A DNA stretch of 12,694 nucleotides from IMG/VR virus record IMGVR_UViG_2529293249_000016, positions 1 through 12,694 of that record, one strand, 5' to 3'. Made by a program: the position numbers and the translations under genes. Positions 1-12,694 of the stretch are shown in pieces. The stretch comes from a virus. Lineage: Duplodnaviria; Heunggongvirae; Uroviricota; Caudoviricetes. The stretch's first letter is position 1. Each line of letters opens with the position of its first letter. A model generated the notes under the pieces. That model made no database searches. It had not been told where the DNA came from and saw nothing but the letters and a program-made list of their open reading frames with translations.

Positions 1-69
1 CACGCACTGTTTAACGAACCGCTGCAGGGCGAATCCGCCAATGCCAGCAATATTGTGGAGATTTTTTGA
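1..69 (+). CDS. 3' end of upstream gene, probably the terminase large subunit (P-like); partial, start lies outside the window
   Basis: Frame 1 is open from base 1 to a TGA at 67-69 that overlaps the portal ATG at 69-71 (TGATG). P2-family gene order places the terminase ATPase gene directly upstream of the portal gene. Frame 2 is also open to 80-82, so the frame choice is not certain. Confidence 0.35.
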   Translation, partial: HALFNEPLQGESANASNIVEIF

Positions 70-1094
70 TGGGAAAGAGTAAGAAGAACCGCGCTGCGGC
101 GACGAATCAGATCCAGCTTAAAAGTCAAACTACAGCCGAAGCATTCAGCTTCGGCGATCCCGTTCCTGTTCTGGACCGCCGAGAATTACTGGACTATGTG
201 GAATGCGTACAGATGGACCGTTGGTATGAGCCGCCCGTCAGCTTTGACGGACTGGCGCGCACCTTCCGCGCTGCCGTGCATCACAGTTCCCCGATTGCAG
301 TAAAGTGCAACATTCTGACCAGTACCTATATCCCTCACCCGCTGCTCAGCCAGCAGGCTTTTTCACGTTTTGTGCAGGACTACCTGGTATTTGGTAACGC
401 CTACCTGGAGAAACGCACGAACCGCTTCGGTGAAGTTATCGCCCTTGAGCCTGCGCTGGCAAAATACACCCGACGCGGGTTAGACCTGGATACCTACTGG
501 TTTGTGCAATACGGTATGACAACCCAGCCGTATCAGTTCACGAAAGGCAGCATTTTTCATCTGATGGAACCTGACATCAACCAGGAGATCTACGGCCTAC
601 CAGGTTATCTTTCTGCCATTCCGTCAGCCCTGCTCAACGAGTCCGCCACGCTGTTCCGCCGGAAGTATTACATTAACGGCAGCCATGCAGGCTTCATCAT
701 GTACATGACCGATGCCGCGCAGAACCAGGAGGATGTGAACAACCTCCGCAATGCGATGAAAAGCGCCAAAGGCCCTGGCAACTTCCGCAACCTGTTTATG
801 TACTCGCCTAACGGCAAAAAGGACGGGCTTCAGATCATCCCGTTGTCAGAAGTCGCGGCGAAGGATGAATTTCTGAACATCAAGAACGTCAGCCGTGATG
901 ACATGATGGCGGCACACCGCGTACCGCCTCAGATGATGGGAATTTTGCCGAATAATGTTGGGGGTTTTGGTGATGTGGAGAAGGCGAGCTGCGTCTTCGT
1001 AAGAAATGAACTATTACCACTTCAAAAAAGATTCATGGAAATAAACAGATGGCTTGGTCATGAAATTATAAATTTTGAAATATATACATTATAA
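69..1094 (+). CDS. Q: Phage portal protein, P2 gpQ-like
   Basis: ORF track 66..1094; the track start is a TTG, the first ATG is at 69 (MGKSKKNR...). Length of about 341 aa matches P2-family portal proteins and the position is next to the cos region. The last roughly 30 codons are conspicuously AT-rich compared with the rest of the gene. TAA stop at 1092-1094. Confidence 0.8.
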   Translation: MGKSKKNRAAATNQIQLKSQTTAEAFSFGDPVPVLDRRELLDYVECVQMDRWYEPPVSFDGLARTFRAAVHHSSPIAVKCNILTSTYIPHPLLSQQAFSRFVQDYLVFGNAYLEKRTNRFGEVIALEPALAKYTRRGLDLDTYWFVQYGMTTQPYQFTKGSIFHLMEPDINQEIYGLPGYLSAIPSALLNESATLFRRKYYINGSHAGFIMYMTDAAQNQEDVNNLRNAMKSAKGPGNFRNLFMYSPNGKKDGLQIIPLSEVAAKDEFLNIKNVSRDDMMAAHRVPPQMMGILPNNVGGFGDVEKASCVFVRNELLPLQKRFMEINRWLGHEIINFEIYTL

Positions 1095-1131
1095 AACCCA
1101 ACGGCATCACAATGATGCCGTTATGAACGAA

Positions 1132-2193
1132 TTAATATTCAAAATTATTTTCTTCAATAGAGAACTCAATCCCTCGGGATAACTTATCAATATTCACATC
1201 AAATGCGATATCTGTTAATTCACCATCCTCGATTTCATACATAACTTCAATTTCAATATCGAAACTAATCTCTTGAACTTCAGTTCGTGTGGTTGTCTCC
1301 ATTGGAATCATTACTTTATCTTCGCTATCCCAATACCCATTATTAAAGTCTGGACCAGAAACAGTAACTTCAAAATCTACAGAAACAGAGAAGGTCGCTA
1401 GACAATAATTATTGTCAATCTTAATTATTGATGGTTCAAAGTCATCAATATTGACGACTTCAAATGAATCCAATTCAGCGTCTTCCCAAGTTGAAACGTT
1501 ATATCCATCGGCATCATTGAGTTGGGCAATTACGTCCGCTCTTATGTCTTCACGTTTGCTTTCGATAAACTGCATCAATTTATTACTTAATTCGTTTGTA
1601 TGCGTATTGTATTCACCTAGAAACTTATCAAGTGAATCAATTTGATGAAGATTGTTTTTACCATCACAATAATTTTTTAAGTCACTATCCTCAGAAATGA
1701 TATACACATCTTCATCATTAACAAATCGCTCTACCGCAGCTAAATTGATTGCATCAGGAAACTCACTTTTTTTCTTATTTTGCCCAAATGGTGGTTCTTT
1801 GCCAAAGTATTTATCTAAAACCTCATTAAGATCTATCACTTCTATTGTAGCTAATTTGGCGTGACATCCTTTCAAAAAATCATCAAAAACTTTTTGTGCT
1901 GCTTCGTGAATTTCATGTTCGTTAAATTGCTGAAAAAAACCATGGAGCGGTCCATTATCAATACTATTCAAAAGCCTAGCTTTTCTTTGTACTGTGTTTA
2001 TAGCCTGCAGAGCATCCTTTATTGATTCCTCTATTTTACCTTTTACTTCTCTCTCTACAACTGTAGTTGTAATTAAGACTAAATCACCTTTCGCACATAA
2101 TTCATGGAAAGCTTTAAATGCTACCCCCTCAAAATGAAGACCAGCCTTTACGTACGTTTGTGTGTCAATAAATACCTTATTTGTTTTAAGCAT
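1132..2193 (-). CDS. AT-rich cargo protein of 353 aa with an N-terminal PIN-like domain (VFIDTQ start) and a very acidic C-terminal half; candidate anti-phage or toxin nuclease
   Basis: ATG at 2193 with AGGA about 7 nt upstream. N-terminus MLKTNKVFIDTQTYVKAGLHFEGVAFKAFHELCAKGDLVLITTTVVEREV resembles PIN-like nuclease folds (DUF4935-type); the C-terminus is D/E-rich. Strongly AT-rich and convergent with the portal gene, lying between portal and cos. Confidence 0.7.
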   Translation of the reverse strand: MLKTNKVFIDTQTYVKAGLHFEGVAFKAFHELCAKGDLVLITTTVVEREVKGKIEESIKDALQAINTVQRKARLLNSIDNGPLHGFFQQFNEHEIHEAAQKVFDDFLKGCHAKLATIEVIDLNEVLDKYFGKEPPFGQNKKKSEFPDAINLAAVERFVNDEDVYIISEDSDLKNYCDGKNNLHQIDSLDKFLGEYNTHTNELSNKLMQFIESKREDIRADVIAQLNDADGYNVSTWEDAELDSFEVVNIDDFEPSIIKIDNNYCLATFSVSVDFEVTVSGPDFNNGYWDSEDKVMIPMETTTRTEVQEISFDIEIEVMYEIEDGELTDIAFDVNIDKLSRGIEFSIEENNFEY

Positions 2194-2317
2194 ACTAATC
2201 CTAATAAGTTTTAAGATCCGCTACAATTGTTTATGTTTATTTTTTATCAATAATCATACGTAGTTAAGATTATCCATGTCGAAAAATTAAATCAACTTCA
2301 ATTTATCCTTAAGCGCG

Positions 2318-2339
2318 CGCTCGTATCCCCGCCACGCCT
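2318..2339 (-). other. Candidate cos cohesive-end site
   Basis: The reverse complement of 2318-2339 reads GGCGTGGCGGGGATACGAG..., which matches the first 13 nt of the P2/186-type 19-nt cohesive end (GGCGAGGCGGGGAAAGCAC in P2) as I recall it. The location next to the portal/terminase genes fits. Confidence 0.45.
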
Positions 2340-2387
2340 GCCCGCTTTATGTAGTGGTTTTCATGCAGGTGCATGATCTACGCAAAA

Positions 2388-2407
2388 GCCCGCCAGTTCT
2401 GGCGGGC
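2388..2407 (-). terminator. GC-rich hairpin (GCCCGCCAG / CTGGCGGGC) followed by TTTT on the - strand; possible terminator or cos-region structure
   Basis: Inverted repeat gcccgccagttctggcgggc; on the - strand it is followed by TTTTGCG. Confidence 0.3.
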
Positions 2408-2680
2408 CTTAGCAAAAACGATCCTCAAACGATCATGCAATCTCATGCAGCATAGACATGCACAGACGAGTAAAGCGAATCGGACCTTACGCAAGGTGAA
2501 CTCCTCAGCGGGCATAATCAGTATGTCGGAAGATCTCTAAAAATAAATAATTCGGTTAACAGGTATGCTTACAAAAGCATATATTTGATTAAAAATCATG
2601 TAAGGGGGAGGATCTCAAACTGAATCGCCACGGGTTTTACAAATTTCGATAGTCTCTCTAACGTTTCGGCTGAGGTCAAA

Positions 2681-3106
2681 ATGAAAAGCTTTTACGTATT
2701 AATTTTAATTCTGGTTGCAAGCTTTGTTAGCGTCCCAGTTCAGGCGGTAACAGCTAAAAACTATGAGAAAGGAACTAAAGCTCAACAGAAATCAATATCT
2801 TACCTTTCATGTGCATTCTATGGCAGTAGCACACAATTAGATCCTAGCTACACGGAGCAAGTACCTACAGCCGATATCAAGATATTACAGAAAGCAGCTT
2901 ACCACGCTTACAACGATGCGCTCTCATACTTTGGCTATGAGGAACCAGATCACGAACAACGCATAATTGATTATGCTGAATTTGTGGCGTCGCAAGAAGC
3001 TGTGTTATGGGATAAGCCGGGAATGAATGGAAAGCAGGTAACACTAATTGCTCGTTCTCTCTACAATGAGAGTAACTGTAACTTGTTACTGGACTCAATT
3101 AAGTAG
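2681..3106 (+). CDS. Small secreted or periplasmic protein (141 aa) with an N-terminal signal peptide; AT-rich moron of unknown function
   Basis: ATG at 2681 with GAGG 5-8 nt upstream. N-terminus MKSFYVLILILVASFVSVPVQA-VTAK has a hydrophobic core and an AXA-like cleavage site. AT-rich and located between cos and the tum-like operon. Confidence 0.65.
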   Translation: MKSFYVLILILVASFVSVPVQAVTAKNYEKGTKAQQKSISYLSCAFYGSSTQLDPSYTEQVPTADIKILQKAAYHAYNDALSYFGYEEPDHEQRIIDYAEFVASQEAVLWDKPGMNGKQVTLIARSLYNESNCNLLLDSIK

Positions 3107-3265
3107 GAAAAAGATGGTATTTTGCCCGTAGTTTCAACCTTAATCTCCGAACCTGTCGCAGAACGGGCGTTCACTCATCAAATAAACGCCACACCTAACG
3201 CCTCACTGTACTCGTTGTTCAACCTTGCTGACGCCAGAACCAAGTTCAGACGCCAGCAACTTTTC

Positions 3266-3499
3266 TTAATGCAGCCAGCTGTCGTCTTCCCACACCTTCT
3301 GCATAATCTTCATCACTTGTTTTCTTTCTTCGTCCAGTTGCAGTCCGGTCAGTTCCACACCGTTAGAGCTACCTTTGCGGATGCGAATTACCATTTTGGG
3401 ATACAGGGGGCGCAGATTGCGGTAAAGCTCGGATTCAAGGGCGTCCAGGGTAGACTGGCTAATCTTCTGCTCTTTATCGATCATTATTTCAATGCGCAT
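3266..3499 (-). CDS. DinI-family protein (77 aa), SOS-regulated; corresponds to the DinI-like C-terminal part of 186 Tum
   Basis: Internal ATG at 3499 gives MRIEIMIDKEQ...WEDDSWLH, which follows the DinI pattern (MRIEV...WE..D.W). GAGGTG lies about 8 nt upstream and overlaps the stop of the preceding ORF. Confidence 0.7.
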   Translation of the reverse strand: MRIEIMIDKEQKISQSTLDALESELYRNLRPLYPKMVIRIRKGSSNGVELTGLQLDEERKQVMKIMQKVWEDDSWLH

Positions 3500-3509
3500 A
3501 AAGGTCACC

Positions 3510-3698
3510 TCAGCTGATGACATCCATTGAGCGGTTGTATTCGTGGGTTCTGATTTTTGCCATGAGTTCATCAGTCAATTCAGAAACCCACTGCAGAGCC
3601 AGCCCCTTCTCTTCATCACTACACTCACTAGCCGCTACAAGCTTAAGAAAAAAATCAATGCGCTGGAGCTTCAAAGACTCCAAAAAATAGTCCTGCAT
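3510..3698 (-). CDS. Small protein (62 aa), first gene after the LexA box; candidate Tum-like antirepressor N-terminal module
   Basis: ATG at 3698 with a perfect AGGAGG 5-6 nt upstream. It lies about 43 bp downstream of a CTGT-N8-ACAG LexA box and directly upstream of the DinI-like ORF in a different frame. Confidence 0.55.
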   Translation of the reverse strand: MQDYFLESLKLQRIDFFLKLVAASECSDEEKGLALQWVSELTDELMAKIRTHEYNRSMDVIS

Positions 3699-3740
3699 CT
3701 TTCCTCCTATGACACCAAAGTAATACTGTATATATAACCA

Positions 3741-3756
3741 CTGTTTATATTTACAG
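3741..3756 (-). promoter_or_regulatory. LexA (SOS) box CTGT-N8-ACAG in the promoter region of the tum-like/DinI-like operon
   Basis: + strand ctgtttatatttacag (3741-3756) fits the LexA consensus CTGT-(AT-rich)8-ACAG; an adjacent half-site TACTGTATATATAA sits at 3724-3737. A candidate TTTACA -35 lies upstream on the - strand. Confidence 0.6.
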
Positions 3757-3771
3757 TATATAATAATCTTA

Positions 3772-3800
3772 CTGATGTAAAACGTTTTTTTACGTTCATC
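3772..3800 (-). terminator. Imperfect hairpin downstream of the A gene; possible early-operon terminator
   Basis: CTGATG...CATCAG inverted repeat enclosing AAAACGTTTTTTT, about 50 nt beyond the A stop codon. Weak call. Confidence 0.25.
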
Positions 3801-3850
3801 AGCCTGAAATGCCTGGTATTATTAAGAGCACGAATTGTTAACCCGCGTAA

Positions 3851-6265
3851 TTAATACAGGTTCCGCCACTTATCATCTTCCTGCAAACGCTGGTTCCGAT
3901 AGAAGATACGCAGGCCTGCTCCTGACGGAATACTGCCGCCGCGAAGGAGTAAATCGACCTCTTTCTCGCTGCCATCAAATCCTCTGGACTTCAGTTCATA
4001 GACGAGCTGCTGTCGCTGATGGTCTGTAATTCGCTGTTTGTAGTCTTTACGCCGTTTCGGTTTCACCAGGCGTAACCTTGCAGCCAGTTCCCGGCGCTCT
4101 TTTTTGCTCATACTGTGCAGGTATTCGTGCAACTCCTTGTCATCCATGCGGGTAATGTCCGTTCTGGTATCCCCATCAGCTGATTTGTCTTTCCCTTGTT
4201 GGTTCAAATTTTCAGCAAGGGGACAGTTATTGCCACGAGTCCAAGGGGCGCAAGCGCCCTGGTCGGCTGCCGCCTCCTGAACGTCAACGGCTTTACGAAC
4301 CATTTTCCACTTTACTGCATGAGTGCAGATCTTGCCCTCTGCAATGGGTGACCAGATGCCATAAATACGAATGCCGTGATCGCCATAGGCGGTCGGCTCT
4401 TCGTTGATTTCATAAGCGGTTCTGATGAGGTGATATTTACGGGGAACCAGTACGCCGCCCTGCTTCATGATGTAGGTGGCAAAACAACCAGCATCAGCAG
4501 CAGCCAGAATGGCATCAAGACGCGGGTTATCCAGTACCGGCGCACCTGCTTTTTTGTCACCCTGTTGCCTTGCCGCCTGACCAGCCAGCAAGCGAAGTTC
4601 ACGGTAAGCCTGACGCCCCGGAATACCAAAGAAGCGGAATTGCTGAACACGATGCAGAGACGCCCAGGCATTCACGTATTCAGCGTTATCACGCAGAGAT
4701 TTACCCGTTTCCTTGCTGATCTCGCCAGCCAGACCACGACCGTCAATGTTCTTACTGATATATTTCGCGATGTAGCTTGTCGGCGTTCCTTTGCGCGGGT
4801 TAATCAACTCAGACTTAAAGCGCGGCCCAGTGTTATTGCCCAGCTCCTCGCGGTCTTCACGGATGGCAAATTTACGCAGTAATGCAGTGATGGCACGGCG
4901 GTCTTTTTTGCGCATGAAACACAACAGGTGCCAGTGAACTGTGCCATCATGATGCGGCTCAGCCACCCGCACGCCATACCAGCGCAACCCGGCTTTGTGC
5001 ATCGCCTTACGAAATGCAGCAAACATGCCGACCAGATAATTGCTGCTTTGTCTTACCGTCGCGTTTGTCCAGGTCGGGTTTGGTCTGCCGTTATTTAGCG
5101 TGGAATGGAAACGCGACGGACAGGTGATAGTGTAGAAAACGGCGCAGTCACCGCGCATTTCCGCGATAAGCTCCAGACCTTTAACACAGGCCATCATCTC
5201 ATTGCGGCGATGCGCAGGGTTGCTGCTGCTGGCGTTTACCACATCCTCCATGTCCAGCGTGTCGCCGTCTTCGTTCACCAGTTCATGAGAACGGAAAAAC
5301 TCCAGCGACTTACGGCGCTGCTCACGTTTATGCATCACGGCTTCATAGCTGACATAAGGAGATGCTTTTTTGCTGACCAGGCAAACAGCGCGCAACTGCT
5401 CTTCCCGCCATTCGCAACGCATCTTCCATAATTTCCGATACCACCAGTCGGCGCACAACATACGCGCCAGCGAACCCGGAATGAGTTCATAGGGCACGGG
5501 TTTACGGCGGTTTCTTTTCCGACGGAGTTGCTCAAACGCAGGTGGGATGACATCCAGACGCAGGGTTTCCGCTGCCACCTTTTCCCATGTCTTGCGGATT
5601 TCTTCTGGCTTAACGTCATCGGTGGCATACAAATCACCACAAGCTGCATCAAGGCACATACTCATATGCGCAGCTACCAGGGTGGACAGGCGTTTCACCT
5701 GATCCTGACTCATTTCAGGCAGGATCAGCAGGCCGTCCAGCCCTTCATGGCTTGCCATAAAGCGAAAAGATGCAGATAGCTGACTGTCGCGTACATGCTC
5801 CAGTCGTTCCAGACATGGCTTAATCGTCTCACGTAAATAGCGGGAATAAGCCTTTGGCCTGCCCAGGCTGCTGAAGTATTCAATACGTTGCATCAGCGGC
5901 TTGCTGATATGGGAAGGCTGGGCGTTGACGTCCGCCAGAATGACCATGTCTGAATTAAAACGCTGCTGCTCATGCGCCAGCTTTGCCCGGCTAATGAGCT
6001 TATCCTGCTCCATTTCGCGCTGGACAGGATCACGTGATTCATTAAAGAAATAACGCTCCCAGACCTGATCACTCAGTGCCTCGCGGCGCAACTGTTCCTG
6101 CTCGTTATCGGCAGCGTACAGAGTGATCAGGTTTGAAAGCGTAGAAACCGGCGCAACTTCCGCCGGGTCCAGATAAGGGTTAATGGCCTTTTTCGGGCTG
6201 TTCCATGAGAATGCTGCGGCAGCCTCGTTAAAGCCGCAGCAGTTGTTCATATCGGCATGACTCAT
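3851..6265 (-). CDS. A: Rolling-circle replication initiation endonuclease, P2/186 gpA family (804 aa)
   Basis: Large ORF at the expected position in the early operon. Contains the tyrosine-rich active-site-like motif [11 protein letters not shown] characteristic of A-type initiators. Its ATG (6263-6265) overlaps the Dam stop (ATGA). Confidence 0.85.
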
Positions 6266-7119
6266 GCACGTACTCCGTACACGGCAGAACTATCCACGCC
6301 ACGCGAATAATCAAATCCCATCCAGCAGCGCGGCCCGGAAACAGCAATGATTTCTGTTGCTGATTTACCCTCGCCAGCTGCCACACCGATGCTGCGTTTT
6401 ACCTTGATATAGTGGTGAGTAAAATTGCGATACAGCGAACGGATCAGGGATGTGTCACTGTTAGAAACAATGACCGGATGTCCTTCTGATGACCGATGTT
6501 CAAGAACGGATGCCAGGTGATACTGGTCATCTTCAGTGAAACCATCAGTGTGATAGCCGGAAAACGTACCGTCATATGGCGGATCGCAATACACCACATC
6601 TCCCGCCTTCAACATCGCCAGCGTTTCATCAAAGCTGGCGCAGATAAACGTTGCTCGCTGGGCTTTTTCTGCAAATGTGCGAAGTTCTTTTTCAGGGAAA
6701 TACGGATTTTTATAATTACCGTAGGGAATGTTGAAATGCCCGCTCTTGTTATAGCGACATAAACCACGGTAACCGTGACGATTGAGATACAGGAAATATA
6801 CCGCTTTCATGAAATCAGTAATTTCAGTTGAGCAGTTAAACTCCTGCCTTATGTTGTAATAAGCCACCTCCCTGTTTGCGATCTCAAATAAAACTCTGGC
6901 GCGAGATATAAACGATTCACAATCAGCGGCAACCTTTTTATAGAGGTTGATTAAATCAGGATTAATATCCGCAACCAGATAGCTGTGATAATCCGTTTCC
7001 ATCATCACAGCACAGGAACCCGCGAAAGGTTCAACCAGTCGCGGGCCAGCAGGAAGGTATTTTTTCAGTTCTGGCATAATGGCGGTTTTATTTCCCGCCC
7101 ATTTCAGGATGGTGCTCAT
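6262..7119 (-). CDS. dam: DNA adenine methyltransferase, Dam-like (D12 class N6-MTase)
   Basis: Internal ATG at 7119 ([11 protein letters not shown]...) preceded by GGAGG. Motifs EPFAGS (AdoMet binding) and DPPY (catalytic) are present. The track ORF extends upstream from a non-optimal start; I place the start at 7119. Confidence 0.8.
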
Positions 7120-7343
7120 ACAGCACCTCCGTTGTAATGTTTGCCTTTCAGTTCTGCGATTTCCTGACAGGTAATGCAAAGCTGCACTCCCGGAATGGCG
7201 CGGCGTCGTGCTGGCGGAATTGGCGCTTCACATTCAATGCAAAGTACGCGTGACACGCCCGGTGATTTGGCACGGGCTGCACGGATATGGCGCTGGCGTT
7301 CTTCTTCAACGCGCTGCTGTACGAGATCCATTGCATCAGCCAT
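7116..7343 (-). CDS. TraR/DksA-family C4 zinc-finger protein (75 aa)
   Basis: CIEC-x17-CITC zinc-finger spacing typical of the TraR/DksA family. Stop overlaps the dam start (ATGA) and start overlaps the upstream stop (TAATG), indicating translational coupling. Confidence 0.7.
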   Translation of the reverse strand: MADAMDLVQQRVEEERQRHIRAARAKSPGVSRVLCIECEAPIPPARRRAIPGVQLCITCQEIAELKGKHYNGGAV

Positions 7344-7576
7344 TAGTGGATCTCCTGCGCTTCGTTCTGGATTGCTTCAGCAGTCACGCGCAGCAGTTCT
7401 GCCGCTTCCACGTGGTTTAGCTGGCGGGATGAGATATGACACGCCAGGCTATCAAGGCGAGCAGCCATTGCTTCAGCCCTTGCCCGGCGTTCTTCCAGAC
7501 GAGCCTCTGTCAGTAAAATATTAAGCCCTGCGTCATCCGGTCCGGTTTTAGTCGTGAGGGTTTCAATATTACGCAT
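7343..7576 (-). CDS. Hypothetical early-operon protein (about 77 aa)
   Basis: The track start at 7582 is a TTG; the first ATG is at 7576 with AGGAG about 9 nt upstream. No recognisable motif. Confidence 0.5.
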   Translation of the reverse strand: MRNIETLTTKTGPDDAGLNILLTEARLEERRARAEAMAARLDSLACHISSRQLNHVEAAELLRVTAEAIQNEAQEIH

Positions 7577-7643
7577 AATCAATTCTCCTGAATTTAGATA
7601 AAGGGATGCCCGGCGGGTTTACGCCATTAATTTCATTAGTTGG

Positions 7644-7985
7644 TTAATTCGGCATGGTTAGCCGTCTGGGAAATAAGCTCACCACTGCACGAAAATGATT
7701 CATTGCTTTAATCAGCTCCCGCTTTTCGTCAGTGGTCAGCTCATTAATGCTGATGCTATGACGTTCAGCTGGAATTTTTGCCATAAAGAATATGGCAGCC
7801 AGTGCCCGTTTATTTTGTTCATTATTGATATCCCGTGGATCACGCATATCTTTAATAAACCGCTCAAGCTCTGACTCAATATTCAGGCCAAAAACTTTCG
7901 CCCTTAACTCCGCAATGTGATTAAGTCCATTCAGGCGTTCACCGGGGCTTAATGGAACAGTTGCTGCAGCGCCATTAATTGCCAT
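7644..7985 (-). CDS. Hypothetical early-operon protein (113 aa)
   Basis: ATG at 7985 with GGGGGA about 9 nt upstream. Same strand and operon context as neighbours. Confidence 0.5.
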   Translation of the reverse strand: MAINGAAATVPLSPGERLNGLNHIAELRAKVFGLNIESELERFIKDMRDPRDINNEQNKRALAAIFFMAKIPAERHSISINELTTDEKRELIKAMNHFRAVVSLFPRRLTMPN

Positions 7986-8007
7986 ACTTCATATCCCCCA
8001 AACGCAG

Positions 8008-8232
8008 CTATCGTTCTTTGTTCTTACGGTAACGCTCAAGAGGAGATACATTTTTTCGTATCGTCTCTTTAACCTGCTCTCCCCGTAAAAACGTCCCATC
8101 CTTTAACGTGAAAAAGTAACTGCCATCGCCCGACAATGACGGATAGCAACAGAGCAAATCATCTTCAGGTACTGAATAACTCTCCCCTCTGTAACGAAAC
8201 TGATAAACCACTTCACTTTCTGCCGCATACAT
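8008..8232 (-). CDS. Hypothetical small protein (74 aa)
   Basis: ATG at 8232 with GGAG about 9 nt upstream. Overlaps the 3' part of the neighbouring ORF by about 130 nt in another frame, so one of the two may be over-extended. Confidence 0.45.
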   Translation of the reverse strand: MYAAESEVVYQFRYRGESYSVPEDDLLCCYPSLSGDGSYFFTLKDGTFLRGEQVKETIRKNVSPLERYRKNKER

Positions 8233-8399
8233 TTGGACTTTCTCCGTTTCCTCGTGGTCAATTCAGACAGCAATTCATCTTGTGAATGACATGGATGCCA
8301 GCGTTTTCCATCCTCACCCGTGATCCAGCCGTGACCGTAGTGCATTGCCGGGCTTTGTTTTACCAGCAGCGATGCAAATGATGGTTCTTTCGTCAGCAT
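8103..8399 (-). CDS. Hypothetical small protein directly downstream of cII (possibly Fil-like); true 3' end uncertain
   Basis: ATG at 8399 with GAGGTG overlapping the cII stop. Position corresponds to the fil/dhr region of 186. The track ORF starts further upstream (8432), which I reject as the start. Confidence 0.4.
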   Translation of the reverse strand: MLTKEPSFASLLVKQSPAMHYGHGWITGEDGKRWHPCHSQDELLSELTTRKRRKSKCMRQKVKWFISFVTEGRVIQYLKMICSVAIRHCRAMAVTFSR

Positions 8400-8406
8400 A
8401 AACACC

Positions 8407-8916
8407 TCACAGCAAACCGAATGAAGCACCAAGGCCAGTCATGGTATCAACTGCACTCGCCATCGCAGGATTAGCCTGTAAACGGGCTTGCAATGAAACA
8501 GCAGCCAGCGCCATCAGTCGTGTTACAGAGTTAATGCTGCTGATAGCATCACGACGACCGGCACTAGTTTTTACATCACCAGATACCGCACCTGCTGCAA
8601 CACGCCCGATCTCTGCAGTTGCGCTCATGACGTAATGCGGCAGTTTCTCTTTTGCTACCTCATTAATCGGTACACATGGCAGACAATGAATCTGTGCCAG
8701 AAAACCATCTACCAACGTTGAATCTTCAGTCAGATCGGTAAGCAGCCAGATTTCTGGTGCGGTTAATAAATGAGGTTGAGCTGGATTCAGCTTGTTCCGC
8801 AGAATCTGCACATTCATGCCCGCACGTTCTGCCAGTTGCACCAGATTGTGGCGCAGTGCGAATGCACGACAGGCTTCATCAAAATGTGGATGTTTGGAAA
8901 CTTGGTAATCAAACAT
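8407..8916 (-). CDS. cII: Phage CII-like transcriptional activator, 186 type (169 aa)
   Basis: Internal ATG at 8916 ([19 protein letters not shown]...) with GAGG about 9 nt upstream gives 169 aa, matching the length of 186 CII as I recall it. Sits directly after the apl-like gene in the lytic operon. Confidence 0.75.
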
Positions 8917-8948
8917 GGTCGACACCTCTGATGTATCCCAAAATGGAA

Positions 8949-9170
8949 CTAGTTGAATACAACATTGCAATCAGTAAGTGCATCAACGGTAAGAGCAGCA
9001 AGGTTGATCATTACCTTTTCTCTTTTCTTGTCTTTACGAAGACGATGCCGAGGAATGCGACCATCCGCCAACATATCGTTGATTGTGTCGATTGAAAGAC
9101 CAGTAAGTTCGCTATAACGCTCGATTGTGACGTGTGGCGTATTCAGAGTTATTGAAATGTTAGGGGTCAT
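8949..9170 (-). CDS. Apl/Cox-like excisionase and transcriptional regulator with an AlpA/Xis-type helix-turn-helix (73 aa)
   Basis: ATG at 9170 with AGGAG about 11 nt upstream. [26 protein letters not shown] is a typical AlpA/excisionase HTH. First gene of the rightward operon, divergent from cI. Confidence 0.6.
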
Positions 9171-9220
9171 GATGCAACATCTCCTATTGGCTTGTGGTGA
9201 GCCTGTAGTAATCGTGACAA

Positions 9221-9236
9221 GTACCCAATTGGGTAC
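9221..9236. promoter_or_regulatory. Perfect 16-bp palindrome GTACCCAATTGGGTAC in the cI/apl switch region; candidate operator
   Basis: Lies in the roughly 95-bp interval between the apl-like and cI starts. A direct copy of AAGTACCCAA recurs at 9278-9287, inside the cI 5' end. Confidence 0.4.
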
Positions 9237-9265
9237 AAAACTGATACTAGGATCGCAAAAGAGAT

Positions 9266-9862
9266 ATGTCAACATCAAAGTACCCAAGTGAGATCAAAAT
9301 AAATCCCAATAAAGGTGGTAAGGCTGCGATTGAGCGATTAGTCGAAGCCTATGGCTTTACGACACGACAGGCTTTAGCTGATCACTTGGAAGTATCAAAA
9401 AGCACACTAGCGAACAGGTATTTGCGGGATACATTTCCTGCTGACTGGATAATCCAATGTGCTCTTGAAACAGGAACCTCCCTCAAATGGTTAACTACCG
9501 GACAAGGCCTTAAGCAAAGCTCGCTGACAGCAGCTACAGAAGAGCTTGTTAAGTTTCGCCTTGCCGCAGGCAAAATGATTGAAGACGGTTCATATGTCTT
9601 CGATTCATCATTTCTTCCTGCAAACCTTTCATCACCAATTGTTGTTCAGGATGGACTCGTCACATACATTTGTGATCAAAAATTTTCTGAAGTACTTGAT
9701 GGAAACTGGTTAATCAATATCGACGGAACCTATTCCATTCGAAAAATCACAAGGCTTCCTAAAGGAATGATTAAAATTACAACAGCAGAGAATAGCTTTG
9801 AATGTGCATTTTCTGATATTGAAGTGGTTGCTTGTATAAGAAGTACAATAGTCTCGAATTAA
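9266..9862 (+). CDS. cI: Immunity repressor, 186 CI type (198 aa)
   Basis: ATG at 9266. N-terminal HTH region (RLVEAYGFTTRQALADHLEVSKSTLANRY...WLTTGQG) and a size close to the 192 aa of 186 CI. Divergent from the apl/cII operon and upstream of int. Confidence 0.75.
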   Translation: MSTSKYPSEIKINPNKGGKAAIERLVEAYGFTTRQALADHLEVSKSTLANRYLRDTFPADWIIQCALETGTSLKWLTTGQGLKQSSLTAATEELVKFRLAAGKMIEDGSYVFDSSFLPANLSSPIVVQDGLVTYICDQKFSEVLDGNWLINIDGTYSIRKITRLPKGMIKITTAENSFECAFSDIEVVACIRSTIVSN

Positions 9863-9882
9863 TATAGTAAAAGGATTTTAAA

Positions 9883-11559
9883 ATGAATTCATTTGCCATC
9901 GTTATACTCTTATTAGCATTTCTCGCCCCTGTTCTAGCTGTAATATTATTTAAACAAAGTAAAAAACACAAAGCGGCTATAGATAACCTGACAGCTAACA
10001 ACATAGCCCTTTCTAACCAACTGATTGAAAATCAAGAAAAACTAGCACAGACCGCACGAGAATTATCAGAGCTTGAAGGGCGAGCAGCACCATTGTGGCA
10101 ATACGAAGAATTGCACAGCGCAGTAATGGATGCAGAGAATAAGATAAAAAATGCGGACTCAATAGCCAAGCAAAAAATAGATGAAGCCCAAATTAAGGCG
10201 GCTAAAACAGTAAACGAAGCAAATTATCAAGCTCAGATGACAATAAGCAACGCTAATAGCGAAGCTATAGCAATCACCAAAGACGCTCGCGATGCACGCC
10301 TGAAAGCCAAAGAACGTCTTGATAATGCTAATAATAAAGCAAATGAGCTAATCTCAAATGCTAATGACAATGCAGTAAAAATTATTTCTGATGCAGAAGA
10401 AAGAGCAAAGGAGATTGCTGGTTCAGCATATGAAGCTAAAGAGTTTGCAGAAAAATATGAAGCAGTTGCAAAATCAATGAAAAATAAAATTGAAGGTTAT
10501 GGTGATGAATGGATCATCCCTAACCGTAGTGTACTTGATGAGCTGGCAGAAAATTATGAATTTACAGATGCAGGCAAGGAATTACAAAAAGCCAGAGAGT
10601 TAACCAAATCATTAATAAAAACTAATAAAGCTGCTTCGTGTGATTATGTTGAGCAAAACAGGCGTAATACTGCCATAAACTTTGTTTTGGATGCCTTCAA
10701 TGGAAGAGTTGACAGTATTTTATCAAAAGTCAAACACAACAATTTTGGAAAACTTTCCCAAGAAATAAAAGATGCATTTCAACTAGTAAATTACAATGGC
10801 TCTGCCTTTAGGTCCGCAAAAATAAGTGACATCTATCTTCAGGCAAGACTCAACGAGCTAAAATGGGGTGTAGCAGTTAATGAAATTATGCTCGAAGAAA
10901 AAGAAGAGCAAAGAAGGATTAAAGAACAGCTTCGTGAAGAGGAAAGAGCTCGTAGAGAATATGAAAAAGCGATAAAAGAAGCTGAAAAAGAAGAAAAAGC
11001 TATTCAGCAAGCTATAAATAAAGCAACGAAAGAACTTATGCTTGCAAATGAAGAACAACGCTTAGCTTTAGAGCAAAAAATAGCTGAACTACAGTTAAAA
11101 TATGAAGAAGCTGAAGCTAAAAATCAACGAGCTATTTCTATGGCTCAACAAACCAGATCAGGCCACGTCTATATCATTAGTAATATTGGTTCATTTGGCG
11201 AAGATGTATATAAAATTGGAATGACACGCCGCCTTGAACCACTTGATCGTGTTCGTGAACTCGGAGATGCTAGTGTTCCTTTTTCGTTCGATGTTCATGC
11301 GATGATTTATAGTGATGATGCACCATCATTAGAAAACCATCTGCATAAAGTTTTCAACGAAAAGCAGGTCAATAAAATTAACTCACGAAAAGAGTTTTTT
11401 AACGTAAATTTAAAAGAAATCAAATCAGTTATTGAAGACATGAACATCAACGCCCACTGGACAATGTTTGCAGAGGCGAAAGAATATAGAGAGTCTCTAT
11501 CTATTGAGCAGGAGCGCAAAGCAGCCACTTCCGCCAACGATGAACTACATGTTGCTTAG
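9883..11559 (+). CDS. AT-rich cargo protein of 558 aa: N-terminal transmembrane anchor, long K/E/A-rich coiled coil, C-terminal T5orf172 (GIY-YIG-like) domain; candidate anti-phage defence protein
   Basis: ATG at 9883 with AAGGA 7 nt upstream, 20 nt after the cI stop. Hydrophobic N-terminus FAIVILLLAFLAPVLAVILF. C-terminus GHVYIISN...YKIGMTRR...PFSF...RKEFFNV matches the T5orf172/Mug113 pattern. Inserted between cI and int, which are normally adjacent. Confidence 0.75.
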   Translation: MNSFAIVILLLAFLAPVLAVILFKQSKKHKAAIDNLTANNIALSNQLIENQEKLAQTARELSELEGRAAPLWQYEELHSAVMDAENKIKNADSIAKQKIDEAQIKAAKTVNEANYQAQMTISNANSEAIAITKDARDARLKAKERLDNANNKANELISNANDNAVKIISDAEERAKEIAGSAYEAKEFAEKYEAVAKSMKNKIEGYGDEWIIPNRSVLDELAENYEFTDAGKELQKARELTKSLIKTNKAASCDYVEQNRRNTAINFVLDAFNGRVDSILSKVKHNNFGKLSQEIKDAFQLVNYNGSAFRSAKISDIYLQARLNELKWGVAVNEIMLEEKEEQRRIKEQLREEERARREYEKAIKEAEKEEKAIQQAINKATKELMLANEEQRLALEQKIAELQLKYEEAEAKNQRAISMAQQTRSGHVYIISNIGSFGEDVYKIGMTRRLEPLDRVRELGDASVPFSFDVHAMIYSDDAPSLENHLHKVFNEKQVNKINSRKEFFNVNLKEIKSVIEDMNINAHWTMFAEAKEYRESLSIEQERKAATSANDELHVA

Positions 11560-11617
11560 CAATGTATGTTTCATAGTAATCACACATTGATTACTGGTTA
11601 CATATACAGTTAAATTT

Positions 11618-11641
11618 AGCCCTCTGATATGAGGGCTTTTT
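11618..11641 (+). terminator. Rho-independent terminator directly abutting the int start codon
   Basis: AGCCCTC-tgatat-GAGGGCT stem-loop followed by TTTTT, then the int ATG at 11642. Confidence 0.6.
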
Positions 11642-12694
11642 ATGGCAGTACGAAAACTAACCACAGGGAAATGGCTTTGCGAATGTTACCCCGCCGGACG
11701 AAGTGGGCGTCGTGTGCGTAAACAATTCGCTACCAAAGGCGAAGCACTGGCTTTTGAGCGCCACACGATGGAAGAAACCGAAGCAAAGCCCTGGCTGGGT
11801 GAATCAGTGGATCGTCGAACACTGAAAGACGTGGTTGAGCTATGGTTCAAACTACATGGTAAATCTCTGACAGCTGGGCAGCATGTCTATGACAAATTGC
11901 TGTTGATGGTTGACGCTCTGGGCAATCCTCTTGCAACCGATCTCACCTCTAAAATGTTTGCCCACTATCGAGATAAACGCCTGACAGGCGAGATCTACTT
12001 CAGCGAGAAATGGAAGAAAGGAGCAAGCCCGGTCACCATTAACCTGGAGCAAAGCTATCTAAGTAGTGTTTTTAGCGAACTATCCCGTCTGGGCGAATGG
12101 TCGTATCCGAACCCACTGGAGAACATGCGAAAATTCACCATCGCAGAAAAAGAGATGGCATGGCTTACCCATGAGCAGATTGTTGAATTGCTGGCTGATT
12201 GCAAACGTCAGGACCCAATTCTGGCACTGGTAGTTAAGATATGCTTAAGCACAGGCGCACGCTGGCGTGAAGCCGTAAATCTTACCCGCTCACAGGTGAC
12301 CAAATACCGAATTACCTTTGTCAGAACGAAGGGGAAGAAAAACAGAAGCATCCCTATCAGTAAAGAGCTTTACGAAGAGATCATGGCGCTTGATGGGTTC
12401 AATTTCTTCACAGACTGCTATTTTCAATTTTTATCCGTGATGGAAAAAACGTCTATCGTGCTCCCTCGCGGTCAACTCACACACGTTCTGCGCCATACGT
12501 TTGCGGCGCACTTCATGATGTCGGGTGGAAACATTCTGGCCTTACAAAAAATTCTCGGACACCACGATATAAAAATGACTATGCGTTACGCACATCTGGC
12601 ACCGGATCATCTAGAAACGGCGCTCCGTTTCAATCCTCTGGCAACGCTGCCAAGTGGCGACAAAGTGGCGGCAGCGGTTGGCATTACCCCGTAA
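11642..12694 (+). CDS. int: Tyrosine integrase, P2/186 Int family (350 aa)
   Basis: Catalytic-domain signature (ARWREA..., HVLRHTFAAHF, LGHHDIKMTMRYAHL carrying the R, H-x-x-R and Y residues). Position next to cI at the prophage end. TAA stop at the window end. Confidence 0.9.
   Translation: MAVRKLTTGKWLCECYPAGRSGRRVRKQFATKGEALAFERHTMEETEAKPWLGESVDRRTLKDVVELWFKLHGKSLTAGQHVYDKLLLMVDALGNPLATDLTSKMFAHYRDKRLTGEIYFSEKWKKGASPVTINLEQSYLSSVFSELSRLGEWSYPNPLENMRKFTIAEKEMAWLTHEQIVELLADCKRQDPILALVVKICLSTGARWREAVNLTRSQVTKYRITFVRTKGKKNRSIPISKELYEEIMALDGFNFFTDCYFQFLSVMEKTSIVLPRGQLTHVLRHTFAAHFMMSGGNILALQKILGHHDIKMTMRYAHLAPDHLETALRFNPLATLPSGDKVAAAVGITP

Follow-up and report, generated by a model that had tools for sequence, protein, structure and literature searches.

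ORF141, a gene for a predicted exported protein beside cos in a 186-like prophage, is a candidate for envelope-level phage exclusion

Introduction

What might a prophage gain from a small exported protein whose gene lies next to its cos site? This question is raised by ORF141, an open reading frame (ORF) of 141 codons within IMG/VR virus record IMGVR_UViG_2529293249_000016 (positions 1 to 12,694). The analysed stretch of 12,694 nucleotides (12.7 kb), hereafter the window, covers the end that carries regulation and replication in a 186/P2-like (Peduoviridae) Escherichia coli prophage. An initial annotation had portrayed ORF141 as an AT-rich moron beside cos that encodes a protein with a signal peptide and of no recognisable family, and had suggested lysogenic conversion or envelope-level superinfection exclusion as its role. 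Here, we describe ORF141 as a conserved gene under purifying selection whose product is almost certainly exported, as far as can be predicted. Our tentative reading, held with less than even confidence, is that it is a stand-alone accessory (moron) gene of the 186-like prophage, with envelope-level phage exclusion as its most likely function.

Results

ORF141 is a genuine gene of foreign composition

The reading frame and ribosome-binding site given for ORF141 in the initial annotation are borne out by an uninterrupted frame with a Shine-Dalgarno element just upstream (Table 1). At the corresponding position, GAGG is kept in the Klebsiella cassettes, AAGG is found at the Hafnia locus, and GAAA at a lambdoid locus. 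The composition, placement, and orientation that had been described likewise hold: the GC content of ORF141 is 40.4% (38.7% at third codon positions) compared with 50-53% for gpQ and gpA, it lies 342 bp from cos in the variable interval between these two genes, and it runs opposite to the tum-like operon.

Orthologues of ORF141 are present in Klebsiella, Hafnia, and Enterobacter. Pairwise ratios of nonsynonymous to synonymous substitution rates (dN/dS) for ORF141 range from 0.18 to 0.27 (four orthologues, from Klebsiella, Hafnia, and a lambdoid prophage). This constraint, together with conservation across genera, argues that ORF141 is not a chance ORF; it is a genuine, conserved gene under purifying selection. 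We considered and rejected an antisense ORF (2877-3098, - strand), as the substitution pattern agrees with the + frame. Among complete E. coli genomes, 101 of 5426 (1.9%) match a 601-bp query (window 2550-3150) at 99% identity or more, and these carriers, all gut Enterobacterales, come from human, cattle, poultry, and swine sources.

The ORF141 product is predicted to be exported

We assessed the signal peptide of ORF141 heuristically, by its n/h/c layout. The N-terminus reads MK, then SFYVLILILVASFVSVPV, then VQA followed by VT, with predicted cleavage after VQA. This corresponds to a +1 n-region and an 18-residue h-region (mean Kyte-Doolittle value 2.4), with proline at position -4, valine at -3, and alanine at -1 of the predicted cleavage site. 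By this heuristic, ORF141 therefore combines the features expected of export by Sec and signal peptidase I (SPase I): a charged n-region, an h-region, small residues at -3/-1, and no lipobox. The same layout is common to all 14 aligned family members despite their divergent residues. None of these 14 carries a lipobox ([LVI][ASTVI][GAS]C) at the signal-peptide end, and an LSAC motif occurs only in P0005, a truncated Enterobacter sequence.

Conservation of this layout supports export, as does the AlphaFold2 model, which leaves residues 1-20 unstructured. Judged from sequence, the ORF141 product is thus almost certainly directed to the periplasm, and it is probably cleaved after VQA, the site that the initial annotation had favoured. 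The predicted mature protein has 119 aa, a mass of 13.4 kDa, and a pI of 5.1.

The predicted fold and family give no guide to function

AlphaFold2 models ORF141 as a compact five-helix bundle (helices at residues 25-50, 63-84, 91-109, 117-130, and 133-140), with a mean predicted local distance difference test (pLDDT) score of 82.5 and a predicted template modelling score of 0.73. Block means of pLDDT are 44-49 for residues 1-20 and 78-95 for residues 21-141. Residues invariant in the family include C44, W110, Y128, N132, and C133, and the two cysteines among them would fit a periplasmic Cys44-Cys133 disulfide. A Foldseek search of the model against PDB and BFVD returned no match with E < 0.7, and none that was specific. 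A role as a spanin or in a lysis cassette was considered and rejected: the modelled bundle is compact and not an extended coiled coil, and the gene is never found in a lysis cassette.

The sole library match of ORF141 is to PHROG 7437, whose function is not annotated; it covers residues 1-141 of the 141-position profile (E 4.3e-99). Two distant relatives, P0009 and P0016, match the same profile at E 3e-25 and 2e-14. ORF141 is thus a member of PHROG 7437, a membership that is uninformative on function because the PHROG lacks a functional annotation. Pfam, NCBIfam, and PADLOC scans of ORF141 gave nothing meaningful, phmmer and family-profile searches of PDB sequences gave no match, and Pfam scans of the 14 family members at E <= 10 gave just four unrelated single-member matches. 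Profile- and structure-based homology searching, the check suggested with the initial annotation, hence yielded nothing informative in sequence libraries, PDB, or BFVD, and the earlier statement that the protein has no recognisable family stands, PHROG 7437 aside.

The family is tiny. A word-indexed search of 5.8 billion proteins identified 7 relatives of ORF141; when HMMER was run exhaustively over 1.84 billion cluster representatives (50% identity clusters), 13 were found, and a profile search gave no relatives beyond this set. Named sources of members are Escherichia, Klebsiella, Enterobacter, Hafnia, and Salmonella, all Enterobacterales; members from Scandinavium and Citrobacter came from separate locus and plasmid searches. 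ORF141, its relative P0009, and the membrane partner described below all lacked tblastn matches among 50,697 phage records. We found no mention of WP_000834899.1, the accession of the ORF141 product, in the text of any paper; it is present only in a supplementary table (Table S5A of PMC9122126).

ORF141 occupies a variable slot beside cos

The flanks of ORF141 (2313-2463 and 3195-3599) are 97% identical to phage vB_EcoM-813R9 (ON470620.1), where they lie just 7 bp apart, and the segment between them is therefore an inserted cassette (Table 1). Closely related phages without ORF141 exist. The surrounding interval contains two slots that vary independently: slot 1, from gpQ to cos, and slot 2, from cos to the tum-like operon, which ORF141 occupies here. 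Slot 1 holds the PIN_12 gene in the window, Hypoth_Ymh in 813R9, AIPR, nSTAND1, or DUF4325 in Klebsiella phages, and DUF6953 in E. coli 300709; since ORF141 is found combined with all of them, it is independent of the slot-1 genes. In Klebsiella 186-like prophages (L010-L014, 8001-8767), the DinI-like gene is absent and ORF141 adjoins the 62-aa ORF, so that the DinI-like gene is itself variable cargo at this slot.

The cos-proximal gpA-gpQ locus of P2 is a published defence hotspot (Rousset et al. 2022, PMC9122126), and phage resistance was conferred by over one-third of all the P4- and P2-hotspot systems cloned in that study (PMC9122126). ORF141 has the attributes of P2-hotspot cargo, lying between gpA and gpQ by cos at a site where sister phages carry unrelated genes. 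Consistent with this placement, Table S5A of PMC9122126 lists WP_000834899 at least 32 times under the label 'hypothetical', with varied partners, e.g. HIRAN and DUF262/DUF1524.

Relatives are found only in accessory slots of temperate elements

Members of the ORF141 family occur exclusively in accessory slots of temperate phages and phage-plasmids. They are spread over at least six distinct temperate elements, and defence genes are frequent neighbours. The 186-like phages of E. coli and Klebsiella carry them in the cos slot. In Hafnia alvei, a P2-like prophage has a relative in its gpS-gpV slot, adjoining a PDC-S11 defence candidate; in a lambdoid prophage next to the trp operon, the relative is the last gene after the tail spike; and in K. 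quasipneumoniae, it directly follows the integrase. Further members lie in a run of five genes for exported or membrane proteins within the integrase-terminase interval of K. aerogenes, on a ParA/ParG phage-plasmid-like contig, on IncFIB non-mobilisable plasmids of ~105-115 kb with phage genes, and on a Salmonella contig near a resolvase. The contexts examined contain no type VI secretion system (T6SS), Rhs, contact-dependent inhibition, or bacteriocin genes, and no relative stands beside a toxin gene.

Three of these loci show additional features. At the Hafnia locus, the gene directly downstream of the ORF141 orthologue (L016, 8624-9640) encodes a 338-aa NucS/Cas4-like nuclease that matches PADLOC PDC-S11 (E 8e-110), making the S-V slot a cargo and defence slot as well. 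The K. aerogenes run (L006, 7267-9635), also seen in Scandinavium lactucae (L004), consists of five co-directional genes for proteins of 219, 131, 116, 157, and 141 aa, all with signal peptides or N-terminal transmembrane helices. No product of this run has a family match, and the K. aerogenes cluster has no endolysin or holin match; the 157-aa protein has a C-terminal LY..NC.LL motif in common with the ORF141 family (hhalign E 0.001; hmmsearch E 8e-4). In E. coli 300709 (L001, 20174-21931), the prophage is degraded, with truncated tape-measure and scaffold pseudogenes next to ssrA, and a gene for an anti-phage dCTP deaminase flanks the integrase.

A membrane-protein partner has been lost from the E. 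coli cassette

The region directly upstream of ORF141 retains the decayed 3′ end of another gene (Table 1). Window 2574-2686 is 75% identical over 114 nt to the Hafnia alvei P2-like prophage (blastn E 3e-16), and there the matching stretch runs from the final ~80 nt of the gene for a 215-aa protein across the spacer into the beginning of the ORF141 orthologue. Two transmembrane helices lie near the N-terminus of this Hafnia protein. Intact copies of the partner gene precede the ORF141 orthologues of Hafnia (L016, 7333-7980, 215 aa) and K. aerogenes (L006, 7267-7926, 219 aa), and the Hafnia protein is 29% identical (E 3e-18) to the 219-aa protein found in the same position in K. aerogenes and Scandinavium. 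Given the remnant and these homologous intact partners, the E. coli/Klebsiella cassette derives from a two-gene unit, encoding a membrane and a periplasmic protein, whose first gene was lost.

An obligatory two-gene system was considered and rejected. The E. coli and Klebsiella cassettes have either no partner gene or a decayed one, and the partner is rarer than ORF141 and in another locus (L022) precedes an unrelated gene; ORF141 alone is under purifying selection, with a dN/dS of 0.19 between the E. coli and Klebsiella versions, both of which lack the upstream partner. The partner is thus not obligatory.

Expression signals and neighbouring genes

A sigma-70-like promoter candidate upstream of ORF141 (Table 1) is largely kept in the Klebsiella cassette, as CTAACA...TATGTT. 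Downstream, the window has only a degenerate form of the GGGGC-UUU-GCCCC hairpin found after the Hafnia orthologue, and another hairpin (3222-3259, with CUUUUCUU behind it) is weak when read on the + strand. An Rfam scan of the window returned no RNA family.

On the opposite strand, the strong hairpin of the conserved cos-proximal block is likely the intrinsic terminator of the leftward tum-like operon, and the perfect LexA box upstream of that operon points to an SOS-inducible antirepressor arrangement of the 186 type. The 731-bp ORF141 cassette now stands between the operon and this hairpin. Because it sits between an SOS-inducible operon and its likely terminator, SOS-induced transcription could cross ORF141 in the antisense direction.

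The cos site was assigned from GGCGTGGCGGGGATACGAG on the - strand and from the linear genome ends of Salmonella phage SEN8 and of Midge, which map to window 2339 and 2330, respectively. Two neighbours of ORF141 in the window are of defence type. One is a PD-Lambda-1 homologue, whose site is a second defence slot of the prophage; the other is the PIN_12 protein in slot 1, which had no match in a PADLOC scan and is likely an uncharacterised defence or toxin candidate.

Table 1. Coordinates of ORF141, its expression signals, and other features of the window
Feature	Position	Strand	Remarks
Portal gpQ	66-1094	+	
PIN_12-domain protein, 353 aa	1132-2193	-	Pfam E 1e-25; 33.6% GC, AT-rich; gpQ-cos slot
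cos cohesive end	~2321-2339	-	GGCGTGGCGGGGATACGAG; from sequence and linear phage record ends; right end of packaged genome
Strong hairpin followed by UUUUGCGU (U-run)	2382-2413	-	-26.2 kcal/mol, z -4.8; 0/200 shuffles as stable; conserved cos-proximal block
Moron cassette	2464-3194	+	731 bp; replaces 7 bp of phage vB_EcoM-813R9, between cos-proximal conserved block and DinI-like gene
Sigma-70-like promoter candidate	2556-2585	+	TTAACA-18-TATATT (10/12); 95 nt upstream of ATG
Decayed 3′ remnant of partner gene	2574-2680	+	Last ~26 codons, with stops; blastn match, and tblastn match to residues 190-215
Shine-Dalgarno GAGG	2670-2673	+	5 nt (TCAAA) before ATG
ORF141	2681-3106	+	ATG start, 141 codons, TAA stop; WP_000834899.1, annotated 'hypothetical protein'
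Signal-peptide coding part (MKSFYVLILILVASFVSVPVQA)	2681-2746	+	Residues 1-22; predicted SPase I cut after VQA
62-aa ORF (PHROG 698) and DinI-like/tum-like ORF, one operon	3698-3266	-	Convergent with ORF141
LexA box, perfect (CTGTTTATATTTACAG)	3741-3756		Overlaps promoter region of the - strand 62-aa/DinI-like operon
Replication endonuclease gpA	3851-6265	-	
Dam methylase, TraR/DksA-like protein, Fil, CII			After gpA, in this order
CI	9266-9862	+	
PD-Lambda-1 homologue, 558 aa	9883-11559	+	Between cI and int; PADLOC E 2.8e-120; Pfam DUF4041/SNIPE and T5orf172/MUG113; 37% GC
Integrase	from 11642		

Discussion

How might ORF141 act as an exclusion gene? We propose that its own promoter probably drives transcription in the lysogen, directed inward from the cos end as with P2 old. 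The precursor would be exported by Sec and cut after VQA, and the mature 119-residue protein would fold in the periplasm as a five-helix bundle, probably pinned by the Cys44-Cys133 disulfide. There, it would most likely act as a soluble binder, either of a host envelope component used for phage genome entry (candidates include the periplasmic face of an outer-membrane receptor, TonB/Tol, or an inner-membrane transporter) or of an ejected protein of an incoming phage. Binding of such a target would shield the lysogen from other phages, that is, provide envelope-level exclusion. In this proposal, we infer expression in the lysogen, anti-phage activity, and the target alike.

Several lines of evidence place exclusion first among the functions considered: the hotspot location, the recurrent defence neighbours, positions next to tail-fibre genes or integrase that are typical of exclusion genes, and precedents for exported exclusion proteins. 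P2 old, tin, and fun are exclusion genes expressed in the lysogen. Like them, ORF141 sits in the gpA-gpQ slot by cos as a single-gene cassette of foreign composition, interchangeable with other cargo, and like old it is transcribed against the early operon. In contrast to the cytoplasmic Old (a nuclease/ATPase) and Tin (a poison of single-stranded DNA-binding protein), however, the ORF141 product is predicted to be exported, and it has no sequence similarity to them.

Closer precedents in terms of location are P1 Sim, a processed periplasmic exclusion protein, and Ltp of Streptococcus phage TP-J34, an extracytoplasmic all-helical exclusion lipoprotein. Both resemble ORF141 in being prophage-encoded, in having an N-terminal export signal, and in a site outside the cytoplasmic membrane (proposed in the case of ORF141); Ltp is also all-helical, as is the ORF141 model. 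ORF141 has no detectable sequence or structural homology to either, and it lacks the lipobox of a lipoprotein such as Ltp. Cor (of phi80, N15, and HK022) and T5 Llp are likewise small exported phage proteins. The cor gene is located downstream of the tail fibre genes at the prophage end, and the lambdoid orthologue of ORF141 similarly lies just downstream of tail spike/fibre genes at the end of its prophage. Cor and Llp are outer-membrane lipoproteins, however, whereas ORF141 has an SPase I-type site and shares no homology with them.

A number of observations weigh against exclusion. First, the hotspot location amounts to no more than guilt by association, as non-defence cargo is found in hotspots too. 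Second, PADLOC gave no match for ORF141, P0009, P0016, or P0017, and no homology of the family to known or candidate defence proteins was found by PADLOC or by tblastn of the phage collection. Third, the receptor-blocking proteins Cor and Llp are lipoproteins, and ORF141 has no lipobox. Finally, sites resembling the promoter are no more frequent in the region than in shuffled sequence, which leaves 2556-2585 only a candidate, and no convincing terminator was found after the ORF141 stop. The suggestion of exclusion or conversion made in the initial annotation is partly supported. It fits the hotspot, the accessory slots, and the defence neighbours; the fold, however, matches nothing informative, and function continues to be a matter of inference.

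An unlikely alternative is that ORF141 is an orphan immunity protein that protects its host in interbacterial warfare by neutralising a toxin active in the periplasm. Such toxins would include T6SS effectors (peptidoglycan amidases, muramidases, or lipases) and the colicin- or pesticin-like bacteriocins of competing Enterobacterales. The general build of the protein is compatible with an immunity role, as is the array of exported proteins in K. aerogenes, but there is neither a toxin context nor a family match. In comparison with Tai4/Rap, the periplasmic immunity proteins against T6SS amidases, any structural match of ORF141 is within helical-bundle noise; we found no Pfam Tai4 match and no specific structural match, and a cognate effector or T6SS locus is absent from nine contexts.

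Other forms of lysogenic conversion, directed at the animal host or at stress, appear similarly improbable. ORF141 might encode a periplasmic protein that inhibits lysozyme or protease of the host, an HdeA/Spy-like periplasmic chaperone or stress protein, or an outer-membrane modifier that affects colonisation. The predicted export, the expression signals of its own, and the AT-rich foreign make-up of this prophage moron would suit such a function, as would carriage by gut bacteria of humans and livestock (cattle, poultry, swine), and a distant member on an IncFIB phage-plasmid lies a few kb from a gene for an LprI-family lysozyme inhibitor. The family has no similarity, in sequence or structure, to Ivy, MliC/PliC, LprI/DUF1311, HdeA, Spy, or ecotin, however, it shows no association with virulence islands, and only 1.9% of complete E. 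coli genomes carry the gene. Such conversion is hard to separate from exclusion and immunity.

Least likely, and in our view very improbable, is a part in the phage's own cycle (regulation from the periplasm of lysis timing, in the manner of the T4 antiholin RI, or of its DNA entry or release) or the fate of a decaying passenger: reduction of the upstream partner to a ~100-bp remnant, which broke the ancestral two-gene unit, and degeneration of the Hafnia terminator hairpin would fit decay, but the ORF is intact and near-identical (99% or more over the 601-bp query) in 101 genomes, purifying selection persists between partnerless versions (dN/dS 0.19), the gene is never in a lysis cassette, close phages do without it, and its orientation and composition mark it as cargo.

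Returning to exclusion, a broader version of this reading is doubtful in our judgement. ORF141 would then found a new family of soluble, periplasmic, single-protein anti-phage factors that block DNA entry and hop between unrelated accessory slots of Enterobacterales temperate phages and phage-plasmids; once paired with an inner-membrane partner, they would be able to act alone, and their fold would be unlike solved structures.

At present, ORF141 is one of many uncharacterised hotspot genes, and a prophage moron that specifies an exported protein is nothing out of the ordinary. Being small, stand-alone, and present in ~2% of complete E. coli genomes as well as in Klebsiella prophages, it lends itself to testing. 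Should it prove to neutralise a periplasmic toxin, the hotspots would be shown to carry interbacterial-competition cargo too. To our knowledge, nearly all characterised P2/P4-hotspot defence systems act in the cytoplasm. If ORF141 is instead a soluble periplasmic blocker of infection, the catalogue of P2/P4-hotspot defences would gain both a mechanism at the envelope level and a new fold.
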